Positions 1,775-47,357 of a DNA stretch of 64,000 nt are shown one piece after another. Within the stretch, counting starts at the first letter, position 1. Each line of letters begins with the position of its first letter. The stretch is from NCBI GenBank assembly GCA_964572155.1, contig CAZNDZ010000001.1, positions 582,518 to 646,517 on the forward strand. Reading direction: 5' to 3'. The notes under the pieces are model-generated. The model saw only the letters and a program-made list of their open reading frames with translations. It made no database searches and was not told the origin of the DNA. Source of the DNA: an uncultured Planctomycetales bacterium. Its GTDB lineage: Bacteria; Omnitrophota; Gorgyraeia; Zapsychrales; Fredricksoniimonadaceae. The position numbers and the translations under genes were made by a program.

Positions 1775-3250
1775 ATGTCAAAATTCTACGTCACAACCCC
1801 AATTTATTATGTCAATGATGCTCCGCATATTGGTCATGCCTACACGACCATATTAGCGGATGTCTTGGCGCGTTTTCACCGTCATGCACATGATGAAGTT
1901 TTCTTCTTAACCGGTTTGGATGAGCATGGCCAAAAAGTCATGCAAGCCGCCCAGAAGCGTGGGATGACCCCTCAAGCGCATTGCGATGATTTAGCTCCGC
2001 GTTTCTTAAACCTTTGGGAAAAATTAGATATTCGTTATGACGATTTTGTCCGCACCACCCAAGAACGCCATAAGCGTGTTGTCCGTGATGTGTTACAAAA
2101 GGTATATGATGCCGGTGATATTTATCTAAACGAATACGAAGGTTTGTATTCAGTTGCAGAAGAGCGATTCATCACGCAAACAGAATTTGATAGCGGGCAA
2201 TTCCGCGATGTAAAGACGCTTAAAGAAAAGAATTACTTCTTTCGCATGAGCAAATATCAGAAGCAATTGATTGAGTATATTGAATCGCATGACGATTTTA
2301 TTTTGCCAGTTTCCCGTCGTAATGAAATCTTAGGTTTTTTGAAGCAGCCCTTAGGCGATTTGTGTATATCAAGACCTAAATCCCGTATGGATTGGGGCAT
2401 TGAGATCCCGTTTGATCGAGACTATGTCACCTATGTGTGGTTTGATGCCTTGATCAATTATATTTCCATTCCTGGATATTTATATGATGAGGCCAAGTTC
2501 AAACAATGGTGGCCGGCGGATGTGCATTTAATTGGTAAGGACATTTTAACGACGCACAGTGTGTATTGGACCACGATGTTGTTTTCATTGGGATTACCAC
2601 AACCCAAAACCATATTCGCCCATGGCTGGTGGTTGACGGGGGATTCAAAGATGAGTAAGTCGTTGGGCAATGTGGTTAACCCCTTAGATTTGATTGAACA
2701 ATATGGCATCGACGCGGTGCGTTATTATTTGATGAAAGAAATGGTGTTGGGGCAAGATGCGAATTTCACCATGGATTCATTTATCAAGTGTTATAACAGC
2801 GACTTGGCCAATGATTTTGGTAATTTGCTCAATCGTGTGAGCGGTTTGATTGGCAAGAATCATGGCGGTATTATTCCAAAGACCAGCGACCATGAGCCAA
2901 CCGATGCAGAGAAAGAAATTTTTCAATTAGCATCCGCGTTAGAGAAGCGTGTCGACGAGAATATCGCGCATTTTAAGGTACAAGATGCGGTTAGTGCTGT
3001 TATTGAATTTGTGCGTGTCATGAATAAATACATGGAATCTCAAGCACCTTGGAAATTAGCCAAAACAGATATGAAGGCCGCAGAGCGTGTGTTAGCCACA
3101 GCCGCCTTTAGTTTAAAAACAGCCGCGACGTATTTAACGCCTGTAATGCCAGATAAGTGTGCACAAGTCTTAGATATTTTAAGTTCCCCAGACGGAAAAA
3201 TTAAAACTCACCCTGCGCTGTTTCCGCGCATTGAAGTGGAGAAAAAATAA
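1775..3250 (+). CDS. metG: methionyl-tRNA synthetase (short form, no C-terminal tRNA-binding domain)
   Basis: HIGH motif region PIYYVNDAPHIGHAYT and KMSKS motif KMSKSLGNVV. Confidence 0.9.
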   Translation: MSKFYVTTPIYYVNDAPHIGHAYTTILADVLARFHRHAHDEVFFLTGLDEHGQKVMQAAQKRGMTPQAHCDDLAPRFLNLWEKLDIRYDDFVRTTQERHKRVVRDVLQKVYDAGDIYLNEYEGLYSVAEERFITQTEFDSGQFRDVKTLKEKNYFFRMSKYQKQLIEYIESHDDFILPVSRRNEILGFLKQPLGDLCISRPKSRMDWGIEIPFDRDYVTYVWFDALINYISIPGYLYDEAKFKQWWPADVHLIGKDILTTHSVYWTTMLFSLGLPQPKTIFAHGWWLTGDSKMSKSLGNVVNPLDLIEQYGIDAVRYYLMKEMVLGQDANFTMDSFIKCYNSDLANDFGNLLNRVSGLIGKNHGGIIPKTSDHEPTDAEKEIFQLASALEKRVDENIAHFKVQDAVSAVIEFVRVMNKYMESQAPWKLAKTDMKAAERVLATAAFSLKTAATYLTPVMPDKCAQVLDILSSPDGKIKTHPALFPRIEVEKK

Positions 3251-4290
3251 TGGCGATCGATACCATCAAATGGGTTAACCATGCTGCACGCATCATTGAT
3301 CAAACCAAATTACCTGGCAGTTTGGTTTATATTGATTGCCGTGATGTTGATACCATGTGGCATGCGATCAAGCGTTTGTCGGTGCGTGGTGCGCCAGCTA
3401 TTGGGGTGGCAGCCGCTTTTGGTGTCTTGCTTGGCATTCAACATTATAAGGATGAAAATCGGGGCATATTCTTAAAACTATTTCACAAGACCTGTGATTA
3501 TTTAGCGACGTCGAGGCCTACAGCGGTGAATTTGTTTAATATGTTAAACCGCATGCGTGATGTGGTTAAAAATAATCCAGATTTTAATGTAGCAGATTTG
3601 AAGAAGGCCTTGTTTAAAGAAGCTTTTGAAATTTATGAAGAAGATCGACGGGTATGCCGCACCATGGGTGATCATGGGGCAAAGCTTATTAAGAATGGCA
3701 TGACGGCATTGACGGTGTGTAATGCCGGTGCATTGGCCACTGTCGATTATGGAACAGCGTTGGGTGTATTTTATAGCGCTAAAAAGATGGGTAAGAAATT
3801 TAAAGTTGTCTCCTGCGAAACAAGGCCACTATTACAAGGTGCTCGGCTTACCTGTTGGGAATTGACCAAAGAAAAAATTGATACAACCCTCATTTGTGAC
3901 AACATGACCGCAACTTTGATGCAACAAGGTAAAATTGACATCATCTTCGCCGGTGCAGATCGTATTGCTTCCAACGGTGATGCTGCCAATAAGATTGGGA
4001 CATACATGTTGGCCGTCTTAGCGAAATATCACAAGGTGCCATTTTATATTGTCGCGCCAAAATCCACATTTGATTTGAAGATTAAAACAGGCAAACAAAT
4101 CCCTATCGAAGAGCGTCATTCCGACGAAGTAACCCATGTGGCCGGTGTTCGCACCGCAGCCCAAGGGGTGAAAGTATTTAACCCAGCGTTTGATGTTACC
4201 CCATCAACCTTGATTGCTGGGATCGTGACAGAATATGGCATTATTCGTTCGCCTTACGTTGCGAATATACGTAAGCAATTAAAAGCATAA
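3250..4290 (+). CDS. mtnA: S-methyl-5-thioribose-1-phosphate isomerase / eIF-2B-related family
   Basis: IF-2B family motifs (RGAPAIGVAAAFGV; CNAGALATVDYGTALGV; AGADRIASNGDAANKIGTY). Confidence 0.75.
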   Translation: MAIDTIKWVNHAARIIDQTKLPGSLVYIDCRDVDTMWHAIKRLSVRGAPAIGVAAAFGVLLGIQHYKDENRGIFLKLFHKTCDYLATSRPTAVNLFNMLNRMRDVVKNNPDFNVADLKKALFKEAFEIYEEDRRVCRTMGDHGAKLIKNGMTALTVCNAGALATVDYGTALGVFYSAKKMGKKFKVVSCETRPLLQGARLTCWELTKEKIDTTLICDNMTATLMQQGKIDIIFAGADRIASNGDAANKIGTYMLAVLAKYHKVPFYIVAPKSTFDLKIKTGKQIPIEERHSDEVTHVAGVRTAAQGVKVFNPAFDVTPSTLIAGIVTEYGIIRSPYVANIRKQLKA

Positions 4291-4291
4291 T

Positions 4292-5167
4292 ATGAATGTC
4301 AGCAGTTTAGGTGAATTTGGTCTCATTGCGCGTTTGGCAAAAATTTTGCCCAACAATCCCAAAGGAGTTTTAGGGATAGGCGATGATGCAGCGGTTTTGC
4401 CTTATACAAAGTCGAAACATTTGCTTTTTACGACGGACATGATGGCTGAAGGCGTGCATTTTACAAAGCACATGCGGGCGGAAAATGTTGGGCATAAGGC
4501 TTTGGCGTGTAATATCAGTGATATTGCGGCCATGGGTGGTTTGCCTACATATGCGGTTGTGTCACTGGGGTTGCCTAAGAATACGGATGTTAGATTTGTT
4601 GAGGGCATTTATAAGGGCATTGCCAAAGTTGCGAAGCAATATCGCGTGTCGATTGTCGGAGGGGATAGTATTAAGTCTGACAAGGTGATTATCAACATTG
4701 CGCTGTTGGGTGAAGTTGATAAGAAGCATGTGGTGTTACGATCTGGAGCCCGACCTCAAGATTGGATTTTTGTAACAGGAGCTCTGGGTGGATCGTTAAA
4801 GAGTGGGCGTCATTTAACATTTGAGCCTCAGGTTGAGAAGGCTCAGTTTTTGGTAAAGCAATATAAACCATCATCCATGATGGATATTTCCGACGGGTTA
4901 GCAGGAGATTTGAATCATATTTTAGCAGAAAGTAAGGTAGGCGCAACGCTTTGGCCGGATGCTATCCCAAAACATCAGGGGGTTAGTTATGCACAAGCTT
5001 TAAGTGATGGGGAAGATTATGAGTTATTGTTTACACTTAATCCAAAGCATGCAGTTAAGCTCATGCAATGGCAGTTTCATAAAAAACTTTTTCACTTTTA
5101 TCCCATTGGGGAAATAACCAATAATCAAAAACAAACGATCAATGTCAAAAGTTACACACATTACTAA
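4292..5167 (+). CDS. thiL: thiamine-monophosphate kinase
   Basis: AIR-synthase-like fold with LGIGDDAAVL...LFTTDMMAEGVHF and GGDSIKSDKVIINIALLGE. Confidence 0.8.
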   Translation: MNVSSLGEFGLIARLAKILPNNPKGVLGIGDDAAVLPYTKSKHLLFTTDMMAEGVHFTKHMRAENVGHKALACNISDIAAMGGLPTYAVVSLGLPKNTDVRFVEGIYKGIAKVAKQYRVSIVGGDSIKSDKVIINIALLGEVDKKHVVLRSGARPQDWIFVTGALGGSLKSGRHLTFEPQVEKAQFLVKQYKPSSMMDISDGLAGDLNHILAESKVGATLWPDAIPKHQGVSYAQALSDGEDYELLFTLNPKHAVKLMQWQFHKKLFHFYPIGEITNNQKQTINVKSYTHY

Positions 5168-5594
5168 CGCGCCACAAGCAACACTTGAATTTGGCAAAGC
5201 CTTTGCGAAGAATTTAAAGCCAGGCGATGTTATTTTTTTAAAAGGTGATTTAGGTGCAGGCAAGACGGTATTTACCAAAGGGATTGCTAAAGCTTTGGGC
5301 TTAAACCCCCAGTCAGTCAATAGCCCTACCTTTGTGCTCATGAACTTTTATGAAGGTAAGTTGCCGCTATATCATTTTGATTTATACCGGCTTGAAAATC
5401 CTAATGAATTAAAATCCGTATCCTTTGACGAGTATTTCTATGGCGAAGGGATTAGTATCATTGAATGGCCAGAACGTTTAGGGGCATTTGCGCCAAAAGA
5501 TTTCTGGCTGGTTGAATTAACACATCAAGGAGAGAACAAGCGGCAGATATGTATTTCTTATCCATCGAATCCTCAACGCAAAATTTTGCAATAG
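5142..5594 (+). CDS. tsaE: tRNA t6A37 biosynthesis ATPase TsaE (YjeE)
   Basis: P-loop GDLGAGKT followed by SPTFVLMNFYEG...LYHFDLYRL. Confidence 0.85.
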   Translation: MSKVTHITNAPQATLEFGKAFAKNLKPGDVIFLKGDLGAGKTVFTKGIAKALGLNPQSVNSPTFVLMNFYEGKLPLYHFDLYRLENPNELKSVSFDEYFYGEGISIIEWPERLGAFAPKDFWLVELTHQGENKRQICISYPSNPQRKILQ

Positions 5595-6232
5595 CCTTGA
5601 ATCTTGACGGCAAGGTCTTGCGTCATAAGACGGTAAAGCACGCCAAGCTATTAGAAGATGTGATTCTAAAGAACATTGATGCGCTTTTAAGTCAAGCCAA
5701 GGTTCCATTTTCCAAGATCGATGCCTTTGTCGTTGGACTTGGCCCTGGATCATTTACGAGTTTGCGGGTTGGTTTATCCACGGTTAAGGCATTTTGTTTA
5801 GCCACACAAAAACCTTTGGTTGGGATTTGTTCACTAGATATCATTGCCTATGCTGCGTGTGATGCGTCCAGTGATGACATCTGTGTGATTGTTGATGCAA
5901 GGCGCAATCTAGTATATAGTGCCATTTATCAAAAGACAGCGACGGGTTTAAAGCTAAGAAAAGGTTATACGTTAAGTTCATTTGTAGATGTTGCAGCGAT
6001 GGTTAAGCCTAAAACGTTGTTCGTAGGTGATGCGGTTGGTATTTATGCTAAGGACATCCAAAAGATCAAAGGCATATGTGCACCAGAAAAGATGTGGCTA
6101 CCAACAGCGAAAGTTTTGGCAATGTTAGGTCAAAAGCGCATTGAAGAAAAGGCGTTTGATGATGCAGCGACGGTTGTGCCAATATATTTATATGAAGATG
6201 ATTGTCAGGTTAGTCCAAGTAAGAAAGTGTAA
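5549..6232 (+). CDS. tsaB: tRNA t6A37 biosynthesis protein TsaB (YeaZ)
   Basis: LSIESSTQNFAIAL...GLGPGSFTSLRVGLSTVKAF. The start is uncertain; it overlaps the tsaE end. Confidence 0.8.
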   Translation: MYFLSIESSTQNFAIALNLDGKVLRHKTVKHAKLLEDVILKNIDALLSQAKVPFSKIDAFVVGLGPGSFTSLRVGLSTVKAFCLATQKPLVGICSLDIIAYAACDASSDDICVIVDARRNLVYSAIYQKTATGLKLRKGYTLSSFVDVAAMVKPKTLFVGDAVGIYAKDIQKIKGICAPEKMWLPTAKVLAMLGQKRIEEKAFDDAATVVPIYLYEDDCQVSPSKKV

Positions 6233-6240
6233 GGAGCAGC

Positions 6241-7452
6241 ATGCATTTAACGTGGTGTGAGATTGATTTAAAAGCGTTGACGCACAATTATGCGCAGCTC
6301 GTAAAATTGGCTGCAAAGCATATGACAGGTCGCGCCAAGCCTTTAATCATCACGGTCATCAAAGCCGATGCCTATGGTCATGGTGTGGTTGATGTGGCAC
6401 GTGCGTTGGATGCAGCAGGTGGCACATTCTTTGGTGTGTCGAATGTTGATGAAGGCATGACCTTGCGCCAACATGGCTTTAAGCAAAAGATTTTACTCTT
6501 TGAAAGTACATTACCAACGGATGCTAAAAATATTGTTGCGCACGACCTTACCCCGACGGTGTGTAATAAAGAATTGGCCATTGCTTTAGACAAGGAAGCG
6601 TCTTTGGCAAAGCAAAAGATTGGTGTTCATTTAAAAGTTGATACAGGCATGGGTAGGCTTGGCTTAGATGAAGAAAAGGCGATTGATTTTGTTAAGTTTG
6701 TTCAATCAACTTGCCCTTCTTTGGAATTAGAAGGTATCTATACGCATTTCCCACTCGCTGATTCGGATAAAGATTTTACTTTTGATCAAATGCGACGCTT
6801 TCGAGATATTGTTTTCGCCCTTGAAAATCAATTTATCACATTTCAATACGTGCATGCGGGTAATAGCATGGGCTTAGGGGATTATAAGTCGGAACTATTT
6901 AATTGTGCGCGCCCAGGCATCATGCTGTATGGCTTATATCCGGTTGAATATTTGCAAAAGAAGATTAATTTAAAACCTGTCATGACGGTTAAGTCTAAAA
7001 TCATTTTTATTAAGACGATTGCCAAGGGACAGGGCATTAGTTATGGCCATACGTTTAAAGCCAAACAGGATATGACCATCGCTGTTTTGCCCATTGGGTA
7101 CAGCAACGGGTATTTGCGTTCTTTGTCGAACAAGGCTTTTGTTCTCATTGGTGGCATGCGCTGTCCGTTGATTGGCCGCGTCACCATGGATCAAATCATG
7201 GTGGATATTTCTGTCTTAGGCGATGCCAAAAAATTACCTAAAATCGGGGATGAAGCGGTGCTTATAGGCTTTCAAAAAAATGAATGCATCACCGCAGAAG
7301 ACGTTGCCAAATGGGCGGGTACAATTAGTTATGAAGTTCTGTGTTCTTTAGGAAGCCGCTTACCAAGACACGTGATCAATGTGGTTAAAGCTAAAATTTC
7401 TGCAGTAAACAAAACGGATCTTTACGAAGACTTCTCTAATAAAATGGGGTAA
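6241..7452 (+). CDS. alr: alanine racemase (with a ~30 aa C-terminal extension)
   Basis: PLP-lysine region VIKADAYGHGVVDVARAL and GVSNVDEGMTLRQ. The 3' end overlaps the convergent pilB gene by 31 nt. Confidence 0.85.
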   Translation: MHLTWCEIDLKALTHNYAQLVKLAAKHMTGRAKPLIITVIKADAYGHGVVDVARALDAAGGTFFGVSNVDEGMTLRQHGFKQKILLFESTLPTDAKNIVAHDLTPTVCNKELAIALDKEASLAKQKIGVHLKVDTGMGRLGLDEEKAIDFVKFVQSTCPSLELEGIYTHFPLADSDKDFTFDQMRRFRDIVFALENQFITFQYVHAGNSMGLGDYKSELFNCARPGIMLYGLYPVEYLQKKINLKPVMTVKSKIIFIKTIAKGQGISYGHTFKAKQDMTIAVLPIGYSNGYLRSLSNKAFVLIGGMRCPLIGRVTMDQIMVDISVLGDAKKLPKIGDEAVLIGFQKNECITAEDVAKWAGTISYEVLCSLGSRLPRHVINVVKAKISAVNKTDLYEDFSNKMG

Positions 7453-14478: not shown

Positions 14479-17400
14479 ATGTTGAAGCGATTCTTAATTC
14501 CCATTTTATGCGTTTGTTTACTACCATTGCCGCAACTCCATGCCGCAGAAGGATTTTTGTCGCTGCCTGCGCCTGGAACCATGGTGCATTTAAGCCCTTC
14601 TTTTAATCCACCGCTTTTAAAAGGGATTAAGGTGCATTTAGATGACCCATTTAAATTTGATTTCATTATCAATAATACCGTAGAGACGCGATTTATCGCG
14701 TCTGATACAACAAAATTAATCAAATATTTCCTAGCCGCCTTAACCACCCCAGAACAAGACATGTGGGTTAATTTAAGCCCCTATGAAAAAGACCGCATTG
14801 TGCCAGATGGTTTTGGCCAAACTGAAATGGGCCGTGATCTATTAGCCCAAGATTACATCTTAAAGCAAATCACTGCGAGTCTGATTTATCCTGAAGATGC
14901 CATTGGCAAAGAATTCTGGAAACGTATTTATGAAGCAACAGCTAATAAAAATATTCCTGTTAATACGTTTAATAAAGTTTGGATTGTCCCAAATAAAGCC
15001 GTGGTCTATGAGAATGTTAAAGCAGGTACAGCTTATGTTGTTGAGTCATCATTAAAAGTTTTAACAGAGCAAGACTATAGCGCAAATCAGAAGAATAATT
15101 CCCAAGATAACAATAATCTAATTGTTAAAGACGTTGTTATCCCTCAATTAACCAAAGAAGTCAATGAAGGCGCAAATTTTGCACAGTTGCGACAAGTCTA
15201 CAATGCCTTAATTTTAGCAACGTGGTATAAGAAAAAAATTAAAGATAGCATCTTATCAAAGGTTTATACCGACCAAAATAAAATTAACGGGGTCAATATT
15301 AATGATCCTCTAGAAAAAGAAAGAATTTATGCCCGCTATTTAGAAGCTTTTAAGAAGGGCGCCTTTAATTACATCAAAGACTCTGGACTGCCAAATGGTA
15401 CAACAGCCCCAAGAAAATATTTTGCCGGCGGTTTTAATTTTGCCATGACAAGTCATATGGATTATGTCACATCCATCCCAGACAAATCCCTGACGGGTGA
15501 TACAGCCATTGTTCGTATTGAATTAAATGCATTTAATGATCAAGCCATGACCGTTGAGAGTGATCATTGGTACTTTGAGATGATAGCGCATAAAGAGTAT
15601 CGGATTGTAAAGAAGCGATGGTTAAATGCGGAGATTATCCGTGGTTTAAATGATCAACGTTTAAAGAAGTATTTAGATGAGATTTCACAAGCGGGTTTTG
15701 ATTCGGTTGAAAATCTGGCGCGGTTTTCATTTGGCACATCCACAACGCATGATATTTATAAGGATTTAATGTATGTTCAAAATAGCATCCGCACGTGGGT
15801 ATTTGATTATTTAGAGGACATAGAATTTGCTAGAAACCATCAACGTAAAGATCGTTTAACTGAGCTTATCAATGTTTTAAAGCTTTTTAGTAAAGATCCA
15901 AAGCTGATCTCACATCGCATCAAGAATGTCGGTTTAAAAGAAGCTGAGTATTTAAAACGCTTGATGTTGGTGTTGATGCATTCTGATCAAACAGGAGCTT
16001 TAAGTTTTAGATTTGATGGGAATGATGTGTTGATTGACGTGATCAATCGATCAGGTTTGCTGGAAACCATTGATTATTTGCGCAACGTTCAGCAAGGATT
16101 CTACCAAGTCGATCAATATTTAGAGAATGAAGATTTGATAGAACGATTGATCCATTATTATGAGGATTTATTACAAACAAATCCATATGGAGTTTATGAA
16201 GATCTGATTGATGAAGATGTTTTTGTGAATACGCCTTTTCTAGCATTAGGAGTTCTCTATAAGTTATGGCAAGAGGGTGATTTGAAAGTTAAAGGCAACA
16301 TAGCAAGTATTCTTAATAGAGCTGTTCTAGAGAATGAGTCCTTGCAAGCGTCGTATGATCGGTTTGCAGACCTATTACCAGAAGATGCTGTGATGAAAGT
16401 CATTTTGCATGGCCCAAATGATTCGGGGAATGTGTTACCATTGAAAGATGCAGATAAAGATGAAGCCATGACTTCCCGTCGTAGTTTATTGCTGGGGGCG
16501 GGGTTTCTGACGCTAGCAGGTGCGGGGAGTGTGCTTACGCTTAATCAAACATTGAATCGCCCATACATGGAGTGGGTGGATCCAACAACATCGCAGCGTT
16601 TTGGATTTGCGGGATTTACGTATCCTCAAGCTAGGCTTATTAATGTGATTAAAGGCATTTTTGATAATCAAGGCAATTTGTCGGCGTGGGGTAAGGCGGA
16701 TGAAGTTTATGTAAGGGAGATTTTAAAAGATCTGGTTGTTAATGATAACTTTCAGCAATTTGCTAAGGATTATTATGACGCGCTTATGCGCGCTGAAACA
16801 GCTTTTAATCAAAAGCCATTTGATGTTATTGCGGTCGAGGGGCAATTGCCAGATCCAAGGTGGGATGGCAAGTCTGTTATCGTTGATTATGGCGCCTACA
16901 ATCGCATCATCGATGTGATGCATAAGACGATTGCTTCTTTATTTGAAAATCAAACAGAGCAGCTAGACCTAAAGCAATTGTCTGATGTTGTCGATGCGCT
17001 TGTTATTCCACCACATGTCTTGATTGCTCGACGCAATGCAGCCTTTGCAAAAGTTAAGATGACATATATTGAGAAGCATGTGCTTTATCATGACAATGTG
17101 CGTGACAATTTTGTTGCACAAACTTACCTCGATAGGGGTTTAGATGATGCTTACAAGGGTCAAATGGAGTTGGCTAAAAAGAGCGCATCAGCAAGATCAG
17201 CCTATATGGCAGAAATTGGAAAATCACAACAAAACATTTTATTCTTAACAAGCACTGTGCATCAAAACGATATATATGCAATTCTGTCACAGAATCAGGC
17301 CATGATCACCCGCAGGCAAGTCTTGAATTTTGGCGTTATTGCGGCTGGAAGTGTTGGTTTAGCACATTTGGAAATCATTAAAGTAGAAGAAAAAGAAGCC

Positions 17401-23977: not shown

Positions 23978-24062
23978 TGGTGCCGGAGGAGAGATTTGAA
24001 CTCTCAAGGCTTTCGCCATACGCTTCTGAGACGTACGCGTATACCAATTCCGCCACCCCGGC
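23978..24062 (-). tRNA. tRNA-Leu (anticodon CAG), class II with long variable arm, CCA encoded
   Basis: The reverse complement reads GCCGGGGTGGCGGAATTGGTATACGCGTACGTCTCAGAAGCGTATGGCGAAAGCCTTGAGAGTTCAAATCTCTCCTCCGGCACCA: a 7-bp acceptor stem, anticodon loop CU-CAG-AA, and a T-arm GTTCAAATC. Confidence 0.85.
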
Positions 24063-28029: not shown

Positions 28030-28432
28030 TGGTGGAGGTGCCGGGGATCGAACCCGGGTCCTTGAGTTTCTAAGGAGAGACGTCTACATGCGTAGTCTGT
28101 TTACTGAAATCTCGCTTTAAATCCCCCAACAGACAGGAAGGATGTTAAAGCCAGCTCTATAGGATCTCATCCTAACGTTAAGAGCAGCCATTAGGACCAG
28201 CCTGCTAGTGACAGTTTATCTTAGTAGCAGACATTCTAAGTAAACTGGCTAAGCTACTTGAGCTTAGACGAGGGCAGGAGCTTCGGCACCCTTTAAGATG
28301 CTTTCAGCTTCAGCCACGACGTTGTAGTTGTCGTTTGCGTTTAATTTGTGCCTGGATTGTTAACGGGGCCGACCAAGCATCCCCGGCATGCATTCTAACC
28401 TCGAGCTAAACAAGTCGAGACCAATCACCCCC
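28030..28432 (-). ncRNA. ssrA: tmRNA (SsrA); ends approximate
   Basis: 5' end GGGGGUGAUUGGUCUCGAC; 3' tRNA-like end GACCCGGGUUCGAUCCCCGGCACCUCCACCA. Predicted tag ORF from resume codon GCA: ANDNYNVVAEAESILKGAEAPALV*. Confidence 0.85.
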
Positions 28433-36900: not shown

Positions 36901-37448
36901 AAGAATTCCTCGTTGTAGTAGCATCAGCAGTATTCCTTGCCGGTTGTGCGCACATTACAGTTGATGCGCCAAAAGAGCCCATTAAATTAGACGTTACCAT
37001 GCGGTTGGATATTTATCAACATATTCAAAGTGATATCGATGACATTGAAAATATGGTGAGCGGTTCTGGCAAAAAAGCACAAGCCAAAGATAAGCATAGC
37101 TTCTTAGAATTATTAATCACCAATGCGTATGCCCAAGAGGGTTTAGGAGCGCAAGTCCAAGAAGCGGTTGAACGTCGCAAAGCACGTCGAGATGAACTGA
37201 TCGCTTTAGAGGAATCTGGGGCTATTGGCGAAAACAGCAGTGGCATGGTTGTTGTTAAGAAACCAGCTGGTAATGCCGCAGCCTTGGTCAGCGCTGAGAA
37301 TGCCGATCGCAAGGCCATTTATCAAGCGGTTGCCGATAAAAATGGCAGTTCTGCGGATGAGGTAGCTGCTTTGTATGCCAAGCGTTTACAGAATGATGCG
37401 CCTTCAGGAACACCTATTGAAACAGACGGTGGATGGCAGATAAAGTAA
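36897..37448 (+). CDS. YnbE-like lipoprotein fused to a YdbL (DUF1318) domain
   Basis: Lipobox FLAGCAHITVDAPKEPIKLDVTMRLDIY (the YnbE hallmark APKEPI), and a C-terminal DUF1318 consensus AIYQAVADKNGSSADEVAALYAKRLQNDAPSGTPIETDGGWQIK. Confidence 0.65.
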   Translation: MKEFLVVVASAVFLAGCAHITVDAPKEPIKLDVTMRLDIYQHIQSDIDDIENMVSGSGKKAQAKDKHSFLELLITNAYAQEGLGAQVQEAVERRKARRDELIALEESGAIGENSSGMVVVKKPAGNAAALVSAENADRKAIYQAVADKNGSSADEVAALYAKRLQNDAPSGTPIETDGGWQIK

Positions 37449-38998
37449 AACTTATAGTCGCCTTTGGCGCGTGGCTTGTTTTAGGCATCTTGCTCTATGC
37501 TAAGACATTTCACGCGCCATTTCTTTTTGACGACGAGATCTTGATCCTTCGTAATCCGATGGTGCAAGATCTGACCCACGGGCTGGCATCGCTTAAAAAC
37601 ATATTTAGTTATCAACCCTCCCGCATCTTTACTAACTTAACGGTAGCGCTTAATTTTCACTTCTGTCATGTGGACACCTTTGGATATCATGTGACCAATT
37701 GGATGTTGCACATCTTGGTTACTTTAGGGGTATGGTATTTCACCCGGCAGATCATTGCCATCCATAAGATAACGACACAAATAGATGTGCCGTTTTGGGC
37801 GTCGTTACTATTTCTGGTTCATCCGTTGCACACCGAATCAGTCAGTTATATCAATCATCGCAGCAGCGTGCTTGTGACCTTGTTTTATTTGTGGTCTTTG
37901 ATCTTTTATATCAAAGCGAGGGTGGGCAATGATGGTCGATATTTCATGCCTGCGTGTGTTTTGGCGGTTTTGTCTTTGTTGAGCAAAGAATCAGGGTGGA
38001 CATTGCCTTTGGTGTGGATGTTGGCGGATGCAATGTTGATTAAAAAGCCAACGCCTAAAATTGTGTGGGGATCTTTGTTGGCATTATTGGTTGTGATGTT
38101 TGCCATTTTTGATTTCAAGGTCAAACAAATATTGATGACGCAGGTTTATTCTCAGTCGCACCGAGGAGATTTTTTAACCTTAGGGACTTATCTTTTAACC
38201 CAATTAAAAGTGTGCATCGTATTTTTAAGGCTAATGTTTTTCCCAGTTGGACTCAATGCCGATTATGATTTTGCCATATCGCATTCATTGTGGGAGCCAC
38301 AAACAATGGGAGCGGCGGTGATTTTGATGTTGTTGGCTATAGCAGCTTTTCTTTGGCGTCATCGCTGTTGGTATCTGACGTGGGGGGTTGCGGCATTCTT
38401 TATTTCGTTATTAAGTCATTTTTTCCCTGCGCGTTACAATGTCATTGCAGAACACAAGTTGTATCTAACCTTAGCACTCATCATCCCCGTGGCTGTTTTG
38501 TGGCTTCATGATTATTCTAAAAAATATTTTATGGTGATCATAAGTGTTGTGATTGCAATTTTTGCTGTATTGACGATACAACGCAATGAAGTGTGGGCAA
38601 GTCCGATCAAACTTTGGCAAGACACGGCAAAGAAGTCACCTTTAAAACCTCGAGCACATTTAAATTTAGCCACAGCGTTGTTAAACCACGGCCAAGACAA
38701 GGAAGCAGAAGCGCTATTCTTTCATGTGATTCAAATAGCACCAGAATATTGCGAGTCTTATATCAATTTAGCGCAGATTGAAACTAATCGAGGCAATCTT
38801 GAGAAAGCATTGGCATATTCTAATCAAGCCATTGTGGTTAATCCAACGTTTGATATTGGGTATCTGCAGAATGGTTTCCTCAATGATCGCATGGGTCGAC
38901 GGGAGGCTGCGATCAAAAGTTTTTCCGTATGGCTTAAAACGCATCCAAATGATGTGACCATCAGCAACCGTGTTAAATTTCTACAAAATCAATTGTAG
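37433..38998 (+). CDS. TMTC/PMT-like GT-C membrane glycosyltransferase with C-terminal TPR repeats (second copy)
   Basis: FHAPFLFDDEILILRNP loop motif, multi-TM, and C-terminal TPRs (AHLNLATALLNHGQDKEAEALF...YINLAQIETNRGNLEKALAYSNQAIVVNP). Confidence 0.6.
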   Translation: MADKVKLIVAFGAWLVLGILLYAKTFHAPFLFDDEILILRNPMVQDLTHGLASLKNIFSYQPSRIFTNLTVALNFHFCHVDTFGYHVTNWMLHILVTLGVWYFTRQIIAIHKITTQIDVPFWASLLFLVHPLHTESVSYINHRSSVLVTLFYLWSLIFYIKARVGNDGRYFMPACVLAVLSLLSKESGWTLPLVWMLADAMLIKKPTPKIVWGSLLALLVVMFAIFDFKVKQILMTQVYSQSHRGDFLTLGTYLLTQLKVCIVFLRLMFFPVGLNADYDFAISHSLWEPQTMGAAVILMLLAIAAFLWRHRCWYLTWGVAAFFISLLSHFFPARYNVIAEHKLYLTLALIIPVAVLWLHDYSKKYFMVIISVVIAIFAVLTIQRNEVWASPIKLWQDTAKKSPLKPRAHLNLATALLNHGQDKEAEALFFHVIQIAPEYCESYINLAQIETNRGNLEKALAYSNQAIVVNPTFDIGYLQNGFLNDRMGRREAAIKSFSVWLKTHPNDVTISNRVKFLQNQL

Positions 38999-39016
38999 AG
39001 ACGCATGCCGTCTAAA

Positions 39017-40057
39017 TTATGCAAATTTACTTTTATCGATGGCTTTGAGAAAGGCGTTTTCTTTGGTGATTTTGCCTGTTGTGACCAAGGCCATGAGGGA
39101 ATCATCCATGAGTTGCATGCCTGCAGCGCGATTCATTTGAATCTCACTATTTAATTTGTTGGTCTCGCCGGATTGGATGATGTTCGATAACGCAGAAGAG
39201 CGCAATAAGATTTCATATGCCGCATGTCGGCGATTGCCATCCACGCTTGGAATAAGTTGTTGTGCGATGATCGCTTTTAAATTATTAGCTAAAATGGTTC
39301 GGATTTGATTCTTACGGCTCATGGGAAATGCATCCACGATACGGTCAACAGTTTTGGCCGCAGAGTTGGTGTGTAAGGTGCCAAAGACAAGGATGCCCAT
39401 TTCCGATGCGGTGAGGGCTAATTCCATCGTTTCTGCATCACGCATTTCACCGACTAAGATAATATTCGCATCACTCTTAATGGCAGTGCGCAGTCCACTT
39501 GAGAAAGAAACTGTATCTCGCCCAACCTCACGGTGGGTGATCAGACATTTCTTCTTGGGGTGAATGAATTCAACCGGCTCTTCAATGGTGATGATCTTAA
39601 AAGCAAAGTTGGTATTAATATAATCAATCAAGGCGGCCAAGGTGGTTGATTTACCACTTCCCGTCGGACCTGTAACCAAGACAAGGCCAGACTTCCATTT
39701 TGCAAAGTTCTTGATGTGTTGCGGCAAATCCAATTCTTCAATGGTGCGAATTTTTGATGGGATCAAACGAAAAACAGCGCCGATGCCGTAAAAGTGTTTG
39801 AAGTAATTGGCACGCATGCGCGTATCGTTAAATGCATGGGCAAAATCTAAATCTCCAGTTGATAAGAAATTGCGCCATTCATTGGGTTCAGCAATGGGAG
39901 ATAATAATTTAGTTAGGGATTCATTGGTTAAGACAGCGTCGCCAATTTCGATCAATGTGCCTTGCAAACGCATTTTAGGTTTTTGTCCTTCTTCTAAGTG
40001 AAGGTCAGAACCTTTGCGTTCGATTAAGATATTAAATAATGCATCAATTTCGGCCAT
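39017..40057 (-). CDS. pilT: type IV pilus retraction ATPase, PilT family
   Basis: Walker A GLVLVTGPTGSGKSTTLAA plus Asp and His boxes; PilT-length. Confidence 0.85.
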   Translation of the reverse strand: MAEIDALFNILIERKGSDLHLEEGQKPKMRLQGTLIEIGDAVLTNESLTKLLSPIAEPNEWRNFLSTGDLDFAHAFNDTRMRANYFKHFYGIGAVFRLIPSKIRTIEELDLPQHIKNFAKWKSGLVLVTGPTGSGKSTTLAALIDYINTNFAFKIITIEEPVEFIHPKKKCLITHREVGRDTVSFSSGLRTAIKSDANIILVGEMRDAETMELALTASEMGILVFGTLHTNSAAKTVDRIVDAFPMSRKNQIRTILANNLKAIIAQQLIPSVDGNRRHAAYEILLRSSALSNIIQSGETNKLNSEIQMNRAAGMQLMDDSLMALVTTGKITKENAFLKAIDKSKFA

Positions 40058-45470: not shown

Positions 45471-47357
45471 ATGTTCCAAAAGCACATCTGTTTAATCATT
45501 AGCCTATGTTTATTGCCCTTGCCACAAGTACATGCAAATGAAATGGTTTTGCCTGTGCCGGGCAAGATGGTTCAATTAAGCGCTGCCTACCAGCCCGCGA
45601 TCCTCAAAGGCTTGACCGTTCATAAAGATAATCCTTTCATGTTCGACTTTTTAGTCGATGTAGGCCAAGACAAGTTACAAGGTGAGGCGTTAAAGCAAGA
45701 AGGCGATAAGTTCATTCAATATTTTCTAGCAACATTGGCTGTTCCTGAAAAAGATCTTTGGGTTAACTTAAGTCCTTATGAAAAAAACCGCACGGTGCCA
45801 CAAGCCTTAGGCCAAACAGCCTTGGGGTCTGACCTTTTAGCTCAAGACTATATTTTAAAGCAATTAACCGCAAGTTTGATTTATCCCGAAAAAGAATTGG
45901 GTAAAAAATTCTGGGACAACGTCTATCAAAAGACACAAGCCAAGTATGGCAAAGTCAATATCCCAGTGAATACCTTTAACAAAGTTTGGATCATGGCGGA
46001 CAAAGCCGAAGTGTACGAACACAATCAAACCGCCTTTGTAACGGACACCCATTTAAAAGTCATGTTAGAAGAAGATTACCTAGCCGCAAACAAAAACACC
46101 GTAGAGACGCGATTCATCGCGTCTCAAACATCAAATAAAACAACCCAAAACATCATCAAAGCAAGCGAAGCTTCCCTGTTGTCCAACAAAGTGTTGCAGG
46201 AAATCATCCTTCCTGAAATCGAGCACGAGATCAACACTGGAAAAAACTTTGCCACCCTAAGACAGATTTTTAATGCCATCATTTTAGCGACGTGGTACAA
46301 AAACAATTTAAAGCAATCGCTATTAAATGACGTCTATTCCAATCAAAACAAAGTCAAAGGCATCGACCTACAAGATCAAACCATCAACCAAGAAATTTAC
46401 GAGCGCTATGTGCAAGCTTATAAAAAAGGCGTGTTTAATTACGTTAAAGACGGTGCACAGCCTAAGAAATATTTCTCCGGCGGTGTTGTCGGCCGCGTGC
46501 CATTGACAACAATCAATAAAGCGATGGCGTCACAAAAGGCAATTGATGATCCTGTTCATCAAATTGTATCATTTAAAGTAAGGTTAAATGATGCCGCCAT
46601 GACAACAAGTGAGGCCATAGTAGAACTCATGGACATGTTGGTTAGTAATGATGTTGTTGATGATCAGATTATGGATGATATTGCGGTATATCTCATACGG
46701 CTGTATCGATCACATAAAGATAAATTAGAGATATTATTCCCTCAATTAATAGTGCATCCAAATTATAAGCATTTAAAGAACAAGATACAGGCCCTTTATG
46801 TTGCAACGGGTTATCCCACAAATGAGATGGGAAAAATATCAAAGGCATTGGTGGATTTTAATTGCTGGCATTATTGTTGGAATAATCTCTTAAGCTTAGA
46901 AAGGCAGAGGAAATTTTTCTATAATAAGGCAATGGCAAGCACAGTAAAAGGTAAGGGATTGTTAAAGATTTTAAGCGCTGGTGTTGGTATGGCGGTGGCA
47001 AGTTATTTTATTCCCGAAGATGGTCACAAGTTTTTATTCTTATATGCCGGTCTAGGGGTTACGGCGTCAGGCTGGTTGCTTTGGCATGCTTTAAATGCGC
47101 CTAAAGCAGATGAAGCGGCCAATGATTCTCGCTTCAATCAAGATCAGGCCATGAATGGTGGTATTGATTTTAAGGATAGTGCTCTTAAAACAAAATTACG
47201 TAAAGATGGATTGGGTGTGAGTTTTGCGGTGGATTCTGAGTTTATAGAAAGGGTCAAACGTGATGGTCTCGAGGGGTTAACGCCGGTTATTGTGCACATT
47301 GAGCCGGTGATCAATATTGCACCTCTGTTGGGTCTTCCTGTTAAAAACAAATCTTGA
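45471..47357 (+). CDS. secreted/membrane protein (P2), shorter paralog of the 14479-18558 protein
   Basis: Sec signal MFQKHICLIISLCLLPLPQVHA|NE. N- and C-terminal domains are collinear with P1 (WVNLSPYEK...DLLAQDYILKQ.TASLIYPE; IPVNTFNKVWI; QAM..GGIDF). Has a C-proximal bilobed hydrophobic hairpin (LLKILSAGVGMAVASYFI-PEDGHK-FLFLYAGLGVTASGWLLW). Confidence 0.6.
   Translation: MFQKHICLIISLCLLPLPQVHANEMVLPVPGKMVQLSAAYQPAILKGLTVHKDNPFMFDFLVDVGQDKLQGEALKQEGDKFIQYFLATLAVPEKDLWVNLSPYEKNRTVPQALGQTALGSDLLAQDYILKQLTASLIYPEKELGKKFWDNVYQKTQAKYGKVNIPVNTFNKVWIMADKAEVYEHNQTAFVTDTHLKVMLEEDYLAANKNTVETRFIASQTSNKTTQNIIKASEASLLSNKVLQEIILPEIEHEINTGKNFATLRQIFNAIILATWYKNNLKQSLLNDVYSNQNKVKGIDLQDQTINQEIYERYVQAYKKGVFNYVKDGAQPKKYFSGGVVGRVPLTTINKAMASQKAIDDPVHQIVSFKVRLNDAAMTTSEAIVELMDMLVSNDVVDDQIMDDIAVYLIRLYRSHKDKLEILFPQLIVHPNYKHLKNKIQALYVATGYPTNEMGKISKALVDFNCWHYCWNNLLSLERQRKFFYNKAMASTVKGKGLLKILSAGVGMAVASYFIPEDGHKFLFLYAGLGVTASGWLLWHALNAPKADEAANDSRFNQDQAMNGGIDFKDSALKTKLRKDGLGVSFAVDSEFIERVKRDGLEGLTPVIVHIEPVINIAPLLGLPVKNKS

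Follow-up and report, generated by a model that had tools for sequence, protein, structure and literature searches.

A GTAG-tagged palindrome in two loops of a paralogous protein family from an uncultured Omnitrophota bacterium

The 64,000-nt stretch of DNA analysed here (hereafter the window) covers positions 582,518 to 646,517 of contig CAZNDZ010000001.1 in assembly GCA_964572155.1, which derives from an uncultured bacterium placed in the phylum Omnitrophota. Two paralogous genes lie on its forward strand, P1 (14479..18558) and P2 (45471..47357), and each of them carries in frame a copy of a short palindrome with the appearance of a repetitive extragenic palindromic (REP) element. The first copy (14680..14703, plus strand) consists of GTAG, AGACGCGAT, the loop TT and ATCGCGTCT, which gives 24 nt or eight codons read as VETRFIAS. 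The second copy (46101..46125, plus strand) consists of GTAG, (G)AGACGCGAT, the loop TC and ATCGCGTCT(C), which gives 24 nt and one extra pairing base. The two copies are housed in different parts of the encoded proteins, a loop of P1 designated site A (14671..14712, plus strand) and a linker of P2 designated site B (46083..46199, plus strand).

Two palindromes in two old paralogs

P1 encodes a protein of 1359 aa with a signal-peptide-like N-terminus, a conserved N-domain of ~330 aa, a variable middle and a C-terminal GGIDF domain, whereas P2 encodes a shorter paralog of 628 aa. They are the only genes in the window that bear this domain. Over the N-terminal ~400 residues the two proteins share 44% identity (BLASTP, E = 4e-118). 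Nucleotide identity is 60.5% across 310 aligned codons and falls to 51% at the third positions of identical residues, and synonymous sites outside the palindrome are near saturation. The longest exact run in the homologous alignment measures 11 nt, and the longest word common to P1 and P2 anywhere is the 17-mer ACCGTAGAGACGCGATT.

The window reads ACCGTAGAGACGCGATTTATCGCGTCT at 14677-14703 and ACCGTAGAGACGCGATTCATCGCGTCT at 46098-46124. These two segments match at 26 of 27 positions, follow the common pattern ACC-GTAGAGACGCGATT(T/C)ATCGCGTCT and encode TVETRFIAS in frame in each gene, at residues 67-75 of P1 and 210-218 of P2. Both the near-identity and the palindrome are far beyond chance. 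Allowing up to 3 mismatches, AGACGCGATNNATCGCGTCT occurs twice in the window, compared with 0.00 occurrences expected from shuffles, and GTAGAGACG-N(0-14)-CGTCT occurs three times where none is expected. Site A (residues 65-78, NNTVETRFIASDTT) is the loop between F.FDFI and KLIKYF, while site B (residues ~205-243) is the linker after LEEDYLA..K. According to an AlphaFold model of the P1 N-domain (predicted local distance difference test, pLDDT, 73.8; predicted template modelling score, pTM, 0.70), both sites fall at junctions of secondary-structure elements, site A being placed at the junction of a beta-hairpin and the following helix. The same model gave no match in the PDB at E <= 0.001 with Foldseek, and a Pfam scan returned sub-threshold matches only for P1 and none for P2.

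Both copies carry the GTAG tag immediately 5' of a perfect stem of 9 bp, extended to 10 bp in copy 2. As RNA 30-mers they reach minimum free energies of -12.5 kcal/mol (P1 copy) and -15.7 kcal/mol (P2 copy), corresponding to z scores of -4.0 and -5.5, and none of 200 shuffles folded as well. The tag recurs in four more copies from the lineage, one of which has GTAC, and no complementary CTAC stands 3' of the stem in any of these copies. The window copies are singletons, neither of them with a second copy within 100 nt. An earlier sequence-only reading of this DNA had claimed near-identity at 26 of 27 positions with TVETRFIAS in frame, a hairpin of 9-10 bp, an old paralogy between the genes and a placement at non-homologous positions. 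All of these claims are borne out by the results above.

Filled and empty loops

The host genes belong to a very large family; of the candidates scored, 4,609 proteins reach E <= 1e-20. Its members combine a signal-peptide-like start, an N-domain of ~330 residues (with WVNLSPYEK and PVNTFNKVW), a variable middle that often contains enzyme Pfam domains, and a C-terminal GGID(F/L) domain. Homologs with a named source are nearly all labelled Candidatus Omnitrophica or Omnitrophota, and the family is apparently specific to Omnitrophota, with about ten or more paralogs per genome. For the source genome itself, a protein identical to P1 (P0121) and at least 9 further paralogs are recorded.

DNA of such paralogs was obtained from four loci (L202, L203, L207 and L209) in three sequencing-run assemblies, which represent the source genome or close relatives. 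Filled sites read aataatacc-GTAGAGACGCGATTTATCGCGTCT-gataca at site A of P1 and aaaaacacc-GTAGAGACGCGATTCATCGCGTCT-caaaca at site B of P2. P0127 is filled twice, as ggcacc-GTAGAGACGCCATTGATGGCGTCT-aataca at site A and aatacc-GTACAGACGCGATTTATCGCGTCT-caatca at site B, and P0125 is filled at site A as ggcaac-GTAGAGACGCGATTCATCGCGTCT-aatcaa. Site B of P0005, a homolog of 59% identity found in a different sample, reads cacacc-GTAGAGACGCCATTTATGGCGTCT-catcaa. In P0125, P0124 and P1, site B is empty and the DNA runs ...AAA AAT AAC AAT ACC TCA AAT AAT... Relative to these empty-site paralogs, the copy at site B is a simple insertion of 24 nt after AAT/AAC ACC, and removal of the 24-mer from site B of P0127 leaves a loop equal in length to theirs. 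The comparison of empty and filled site B thus defines the unit as GTAG followed by the two arms of a 9-bp stem around a 2-nt loop, or eight codons. Since ACC also adjoins the empty sites, the leading ACC is a flanking Thr codon outside the unit. The 27-nt segment of the earlier reading accordingly stands as a palindrome but not in its boundaries, the mobile unit being the 24-mer at 14680-14703 and 46101-46124. At site A, the empty-site paralogs differ in loop length, so that presence or absence is clear and the exact boundaries are not.

Within the source genome, site B is filled in at least P2, P0001, P0127 and P0141, and site A in P1 and P0127. Site B is empty in P0122, P0123, P0124, P0128, P0129 and P0146, and site A is devoid of the palindrome-derived peptide in P0001, P0128 and P0141 (judged on protein) and in P0124 (judged on DNA). 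Most family members are empty, with GDSQLSNDALKDES at site A and KHEGIQSKQAQTKDTSQLGSQ at site B. Filled genes are scattered among empty ones in the order of similarity, which argues for many independent gains.

Once a site has been filled, the copy and its surroundings appear to move together. P2 and P0127 (L202) share 66% nucleotide identity overall and 51% at third positions, whereas ~25 codons around site B, including the REP (window 46083-46199), reach 87-94%. This island comprises the REP and ~10 flanking codons on each side; ~30 nt of flank per side are common to the site-B copies, and the flanking peptide NKNT...QTTNK.TQNI recurs in P2, P0001, P0127, P0141 and P0130. Judged by these sequences, the island looks like a gene-conversion tract or a recently inherited linker among filled paralogs, which supports, for site B, the view that duplication or gene conversion carries a REP at a given site along with its flanks. 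Carried to its end, this view would hold that gene conversion or ectopic recombination among paralogs explains all copies, with neither a mobile element nor a transposase. The island and the common flanks are in its favour, as is the AAY ACC that precedes both window copies. However, the site-A and site-B copies of the window have nothing beyond the element in common except this AAYACC, and their flanks are unrelated past 6 nt. Homologous conversion cannot link them, and the relation between A and B needs an insertion event. Moreover, the palindrome also occurs between genes, in distant phyla and beside genes for REP-associated tyrosine transposases (RAYTs), as described below, which recombination among paralogs leaves unexplained. 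As a complete account it is improbable.

The two sites are part of a wider pattern of loop occupation. A sample of 1.10 Mb of Omnitrophota DNA comprised 80 metagenome loci, selected because they contain a family gene, as well as the window, L121 and two assembly loci. Here 11 of the 13 non-redundant copies lie in site A or B, and the N-domains make up ~9% of the sample. Loops at residues ~65-80, 205-240 and 300-340 of the N-domains hold at least 8 GTAG-REP stem families together with other palindromes. The elements found there include GTAC-GGACACAA..., at least 6 further GTAG-GGG... stem families, CCCCCTCTTT..AAAGAGGGGG, ATTCCCGCGAAAGCGGGAAT (read as VIPAKAGIQ) and elements of the VIASEAKQS type. 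Among 22 distinct GTAG- or GTAC-tagged inserts (L121-L203 and the window), GTA serves as a Val codon in 20 and the insert follows C in 16. The hot-spot loops occur in dozens of dispensable paralogs, and tolerance is the simplest reason for them because unrelated palindromes share the same sites.

A more active role for these loops has also been considered, namely that they are targeted landing sites where a RAYT-like enzyme or hairpin-dependent recombination inserts and exchanges REP-type hairpins of many stem families. The location of 11 of the 13 non-redundant Omnitrophota copies in these loops, the frame common to 20 of 22 tagged inserts and the C before 16 of 22 are compatible with it. We give targeting a low probability. 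If true, REP traffic would be a means of diversifying exposed loops in a large family of secreted or cargo-carrying proteins. Along the same line, REPs within a RAYT gene might feed back on its expression.

The loops of L122-L201 contain additional short, GC-rich palindromes, CCCCCTCTTTnnnnAAAGAGGGGG (PSLVKEG.RGS) and GTACGGACACAA..TTGTGTCCGTAC (VRTQNFVSV), as well as the peptides RHPERSEGS, SSPNASVGD and LPTRGHVPEG. Some of the other loop palindromes are also present in further open reading frames (ORFs) and in intergenic DNA. The 20-mer ATTCCCGCGAAAGCGGGAAT is frequent in loops and intergenic DNA of Omnitrophota, where it is flanked by TGTC...GACA. It is identical to a repeat upstream of pilE in N. 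gonorrhoeae, where it is preceded by CGTC (PMC7593972), and may belong to a CGTC-tagged REP super-family.

A widespread palindrome family and its association with RAYT genes

A cross-phylum search with GACGCGATNNATCGCGTC returned at least 120 genome loci (L001-L120), which, among the matches listed, belong to Nostocales, other cyanobacteria, Bacteroidota, Chloroflexota, Methylococcales, Cloacimonadota, groups of the Candidate Phyla Radiation (CPR) and Omnitrophota. About 65% of the cross-phylum copies listed lie outside any ORF of at least 100 aa. The full family consensus is GTAGAGACG-NNNN-nn-NNNN-CGTCTCTAC, with an invariant outer stem and a covarying inner one, and the flanks of the cross-phylum copies define a perfect palindrome of 28 nt, GTAGAGACGCGATnnATCGCGTCTCTAC. 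In all DNA fetched, 112 of 115 unique AGACG-N10-CGTCT sequences have a perfectly complementary inner 4 bp, and at least 7 fully complementary inner-stem types are represented among these 115. Sites A and B of the paralogs and homologs alone display the variants CGAT/ATCG, CCAT/ATGG, AGGC/GCCT and GTGT/ACAC.

Covariation was scored on 12 distinct copies that had not been selected by their inner stem. All 108 of 108 cells pair, and the unconstrained inner pairs change on both sides in 4 of 4 cases; the five outer pairs are fixed by the search pattern and hence uninformative. None of 500 shuffles reached this score, and no slid register came close. The hairpin-forming stem is thus preserved. In Chloroflexota, variants of the form GGGACG...CGTCCC likewise keep the structure.

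The same variants speak against two further explanations. The first takes TVETRFIAS as a selected protein motif and the nucleotide identity as its by-product, in line with its presence in frame in both genes and its recurrence in several paralogs. However, the variants VETPFMAS, VETPLMAS, VETRHASS and VETQNFAS alter the peptide and keep the base pairing, and elsewhere the other frame is used, which reads RRDAINGVST (L149) or RDAIYGVS (P0242). Additionally, the element occurs outside genes as well, and the remaining synonymous sites of P1 and P2 are close to saturation. This explanation is very unlikely. The second regards the perfect dyad as the site of a restriction-modification system or a DNA-binding regulator, based on the outward-facing half-sites GAGACG and CGTCTC, which we take to be the type IIS site of Esp3I/BsmBI. 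The restriction reading is rejected on the basis of the Chloroflexota copies, in which the structure is kept and the site lost. Variation of the inner stem with pairing kept points to a folded hairpin and not to a duplex motif, and no methyltransferase or regulator gene is adjacent. A recognition site of either kind is extremely improbable.

Copies outside the host family are instructive about the element in its classical setting. The third match in the window is a short variant at 38995..39013 (plus strand), GTAG-AGACG-catgc-CGTCT or GTAGAGACGcatgcCGTCT, which is situated between two convergent genes, a TPR gene (37433-38998) and a T2SSE ATPase gene (39017-40057, minus strand). The TAG at 38996-38998, inside GTAGAG, forms the stop codon of the TPR gene. 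On its own the variant makes a weak hairpin (z = -0.5), and it is probably what is left of a REP at the kind of extragenic site that is classical for these repeats. L160 has a full copy in the space between two genes, where the tag ends ORF 114-1091 (TAG stop, L160:1088). In L105, a metagenome-assembled genome of Omnitrophota, a copy lies inside a long stop-to-stop frame that is not a family gene. The base before GTAG is predominantly C in Omnitrophota (21 of 28 occurrences) and predominantly T in the mostly cyanobacterial cross-phylum set (74 of 127), and the idea of a universal 5' target site was dropped for this reason. In Nostocales loci such as L014, L050, L094 and L075, the palindrome, often as GTACAGACGCGATTAATCGCGTCTGTAC, lies within tandem heptamer repeats or alternates with them, and it can form arrays with a period of 39 nt.

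The ORFs of the 120 cross-phylum loci listed were clustered without bias to find recurrent neighbours. Among the matches listed, the only small gene family that recurs beside the palindrome across phyla encodes an HUH/Y1 protein, found at L006 (Balneolia), L026, L055 (Paludibacter), L074 (Nostoc) and L104 (Bacteroidales). Their sequences contain the HUH motif (MPNH.H.I) as well as a region of the form WQ.RF.DH.IRN...YI.NP. In Pfam they match Y1_Tnp, where one of them exceeds the threshold, and in NCBIfam they match the model of REP-associated tyrosine transposases (REP_Tyr_transpos) with an E value of 3e-13 that does not reach the curated cutoff. A profile of the family detected a single PDB entry, 4ER8 (TnpA-REP of E. 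coli), with matches in the HUH and Tyr-motif regions.

The association extends to Omnitrophota. On contig L171, site A of a family gene is occupied by GTAGAGACGCCATTAATGGCGTCTCTAC, and at a distance of 10 kb lies a RAYT gene with GAGACGCCATAAATGGCGTCTCTAC immediately after its stop codon. A homolog search with this RAYT fragment yielded two close relatives on Omnitrophota-like contigs, P0241 and P0242 (L204-L206), both with a REP downstream of the gene and another in frame inside it, just after the HUH motif. The two genes read the internal REP in different frames, as VETPFMASL and RDAIYGVS, respectively. RAYT-like genes of Bacteroidota and Nostoc also carry their own REP in frame after the HUH motif. 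The genes with an internal REP are located at L006:1553-2209, L074:1722-2348 (minus strand), L104:5704-6339 (minus strand) and L204:10001-10399, and the one in L104 contains two REPs. Their presence inside RAYT genes could reflect self-insertion or autoregulation.

L104 (Bacteroidales UBA1715) is further distinguished by nine GTAGAGACG-type REPs within 8 kb (1959-6754), situated around and inside two RAYT-like ORFs. Eight of them have GTGT/ACAC inner stems and one has CGAT/ATCG, and together they form a dense, REPtron-like cluster. Between L074 (Nostoc) and L171:20677-20898, the C-terminal 75 RAYT-like residues are 53% identical and the REPs share the outer stem GTAGAGACG. Such resemblance hints that REP/RAYT pairs may have spread horizontally across phyla.

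A hairpin that is stable and preserved might also be kept for the benefit of the host, as a translational pause ~45 codons past the signal peptide, as an mRNA stability element or as a binding site for a regulatory protein. The fold and the compensatory changes that preserve the stem agree with this idea, and so does the location of 11 of the 13 Omnitrophota copies in two loops of one family, together with the single frame used by 20 of 22 inserts. However, most family members have no hairpin at these sites, many unrelated palindromes are held there instead, and elsewhere the element is intergenic and linked to a transposase. Recognition of the hairpin by a transposase would lead one to expect the covariation just as much, and no Rfam family matches the hairpin. 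A function of the hairpin for the host is therefore unlikely. At the gathering threshold, Rfam gave only transfer-messenger RNA (tmRNA) and tRNA, and permissive scans of both sites gave chance-level matches only.

The remaining surroundings are ordinary. The genes adjoining P1 and P2 encode DUF192, M48 peptidase, RNase T, SPOR and LpoB proteins, and no transposase, methyltransferase or regulator was found among the genes next to the two. The window contains a tmRNA gene at 28030-28432 (minus strand) with a long predicted tag peptide, ANDNYNVVAEAESILKGAEAPALV, and a tRNA-Leu(CAG) gene at 23978-24062 (minus strand). Literature searches on the sequence and its peptides returned primer coincidences only, and a search on palindromic in-frame elements in Omnitrophica found nothing.

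Proposed origin and relation to known systems

The reading that we favour, with good confidence, is that the segment is a copy of a GTAG-tagged REP lodged in permissive loops, that a RAYT is its most likely source, that it has spread among paralogs and that it serves no function in the host protein. Copies of one REP sub-family would have entered two permissive loops, site A in P1 and site B in P2. Owing to this double insertion of one sub-family, the 26/27 identity would reflect common descent of the element and not of the protein segments. The inserts would have survived as 24 nt amount to eight stop-free codons placed at secondary-structure junctions. The source or mobiliser would most likely be a RAYT of the HUH/Y1 type acting on the folded single-stranded hairpin and its GTAG tag, a role suggested by the association of the two in related genomes. 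After entry into one paralog, duplication or gene conversion may then spread the copy and its flanks among paralogs, or maintain them there, at the same site. For the host protein, the element is most likely without function.

Several observations weigh against this reading. A tblastn search found no RAYT gene in the 64-kb window, and the RAYT-like proteins elsewhere score 50 bits, under the NCBIfam curated cutoff of 80 bits, partly because REPs interrupt these proteins. To our knowledge, mobilisation of REPs by RAYTs has never been directly demonstrated in vivo, and the activity on record is cleavage and joining by E. coli TnpA-REP in vitro. Approximately 130 kb of the source lineage yielded five full copies, all of them in loops of the family, and one short intergenic variant, whereas REPs are by definition high-copy and extragenic. 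Duplication or gene conversion, and not transposition, explains most copies, the A-versus-B relation alone requiring insertion. Furthermore, the crowding of copies into two loops might be due to targeting and not simply to tolerance.

With regard to the sequence-only reading, its proposal of a small mobile palindromic cassette is supported, as other paralogs of this genome lack the 24-mer in the corresponding loops. The compensatory stem variants, the occurrence of the family in many phyla and the association with a REP-type tyrosine transposase back it further. Its gene-conversion alternative probably contributes among paralogs filled at the same site and does not link the P1 and P2 copies. 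A regulator or restriction site, a recombination hotspot and a selected mRNA hairpin, which it had also offered, are not needed, and nothing was found in their support. It had further held that a common REP-like repeat unrelated to these genes would make the case an ordinary one. The element is indeed a REP-type repeat, but its copies in this lineage are concentrated in this gene family.

The odd nucleotide conservation can thereby be explained without a new mechanism. The type of element is already known, and what is unusual is its frequency in these loops. GTAG-REP/RAYT biology is extended to Omnitrophota, a phylum that goes without mention in the available text of the 2013 survey (PMC3733652). 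Hundreds of homologous loops, either empty or variously filled, offer a natural data set on selfish hairpin DNA absorbed into proteins. One REP outer stem, found with related RAYTs from cyanobacteria to Bacteroidota to Omnitrophota, bears on the question whether REP/RAYT pairs are passed on horizontally. For annotation, VETRFIAS, RDAINRVST and VIPAKAGIQ are to be taken as translated repeats and not as protein motifs.

GTAG REPs are described in the available text of that survey (Di Nocera 2013, PMC3733652) as stem-loops of 20-40 bp with a GTAG tag at one end, stems of 5-13 bp and loops that are often TY or CMA, sorted into 24 numbered families, with sub-families that show complementary stem changes. 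According to the same text, they are repeated and dispersed over the genome, for the most part between genes, their tags can supply the TAG stop of an upstream ORF, they are associated with RAYT genes, and intragenic copies occur in several species, mostly in Opitutus terrae, a relative of Omnitrophota within the Planctomycetes-Verrucomicrobia-Chlamydiae (PVC) group. Measured against this description, the window element agrees in all structural respects, that is in size, stem, tag, TY loop and stem sub-families. Copies of its family also abut ORF ends and supply TAG stops (window 38996-38998; L160), lie in part inside ORFs and, in related sequences (L171, L204-206, L104, L074, L006 and L026), flank RAYT genes. 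It differs, as far as this text goes, in that copies of the source lineage are few, almost all intragenic and confined largely to one protein family. In addition, copies from other genomes canonically form a fully symmetric 28-mer, their GTAG being paired with CTAC, whereas the published tag is unpaired. Further differences from the published elements are that one outer stem is common to several phyla and that RAYT genes carry the REP in frame.

The small dispersed repeats (SDRs) of Nostoc are a second point of reference. They are reportedly 21-27 nt long and mobile-looking, with a common hairpin, and are said to occur in coding and non-coding DNA, often within tandem heptamer repeats. They are also said to be confined to heterocyst-forming cyanobacteria and to have no known enzyme. 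The Nostocales copies of the present palindrome sit in heptamer repeats as well. In contrast to the SDRs, the present family occurs in several phyla and is linked to RAYT genes.

The closest functional analogy is provided by the Rickettsia palindromic elements (RPEs), which are likewise selfish palindromes tolerated in frame in coding genes. Their inserts reportedly lie in surface-exposed segments of proteins. RPE-1 is several times longer than 24 nt, roughly 100-150 bp, and the window unit, with only 24 nt, is not a member of the RPEs. In the available text of the GTAG-REP survey (PMC3733652), the intragenic REPs of R. conorii are RPE-4 and RPE-6, and the longer RPE-1 palindromes are noted to interrupt genes too; hot-spot loops in a single paralog family are undescribed for RPEs in that text.

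Finally, REPINs (Bertels and Rainey 2011, PMC3116915) are inverted REP doublets that form hairpins, are associated with RAYTs and are regarded as a replicating entity. The window copies resemble them as REP-derived units with a probable association with RAYTs, and differ from them in being singletons instead of inverted doublets.

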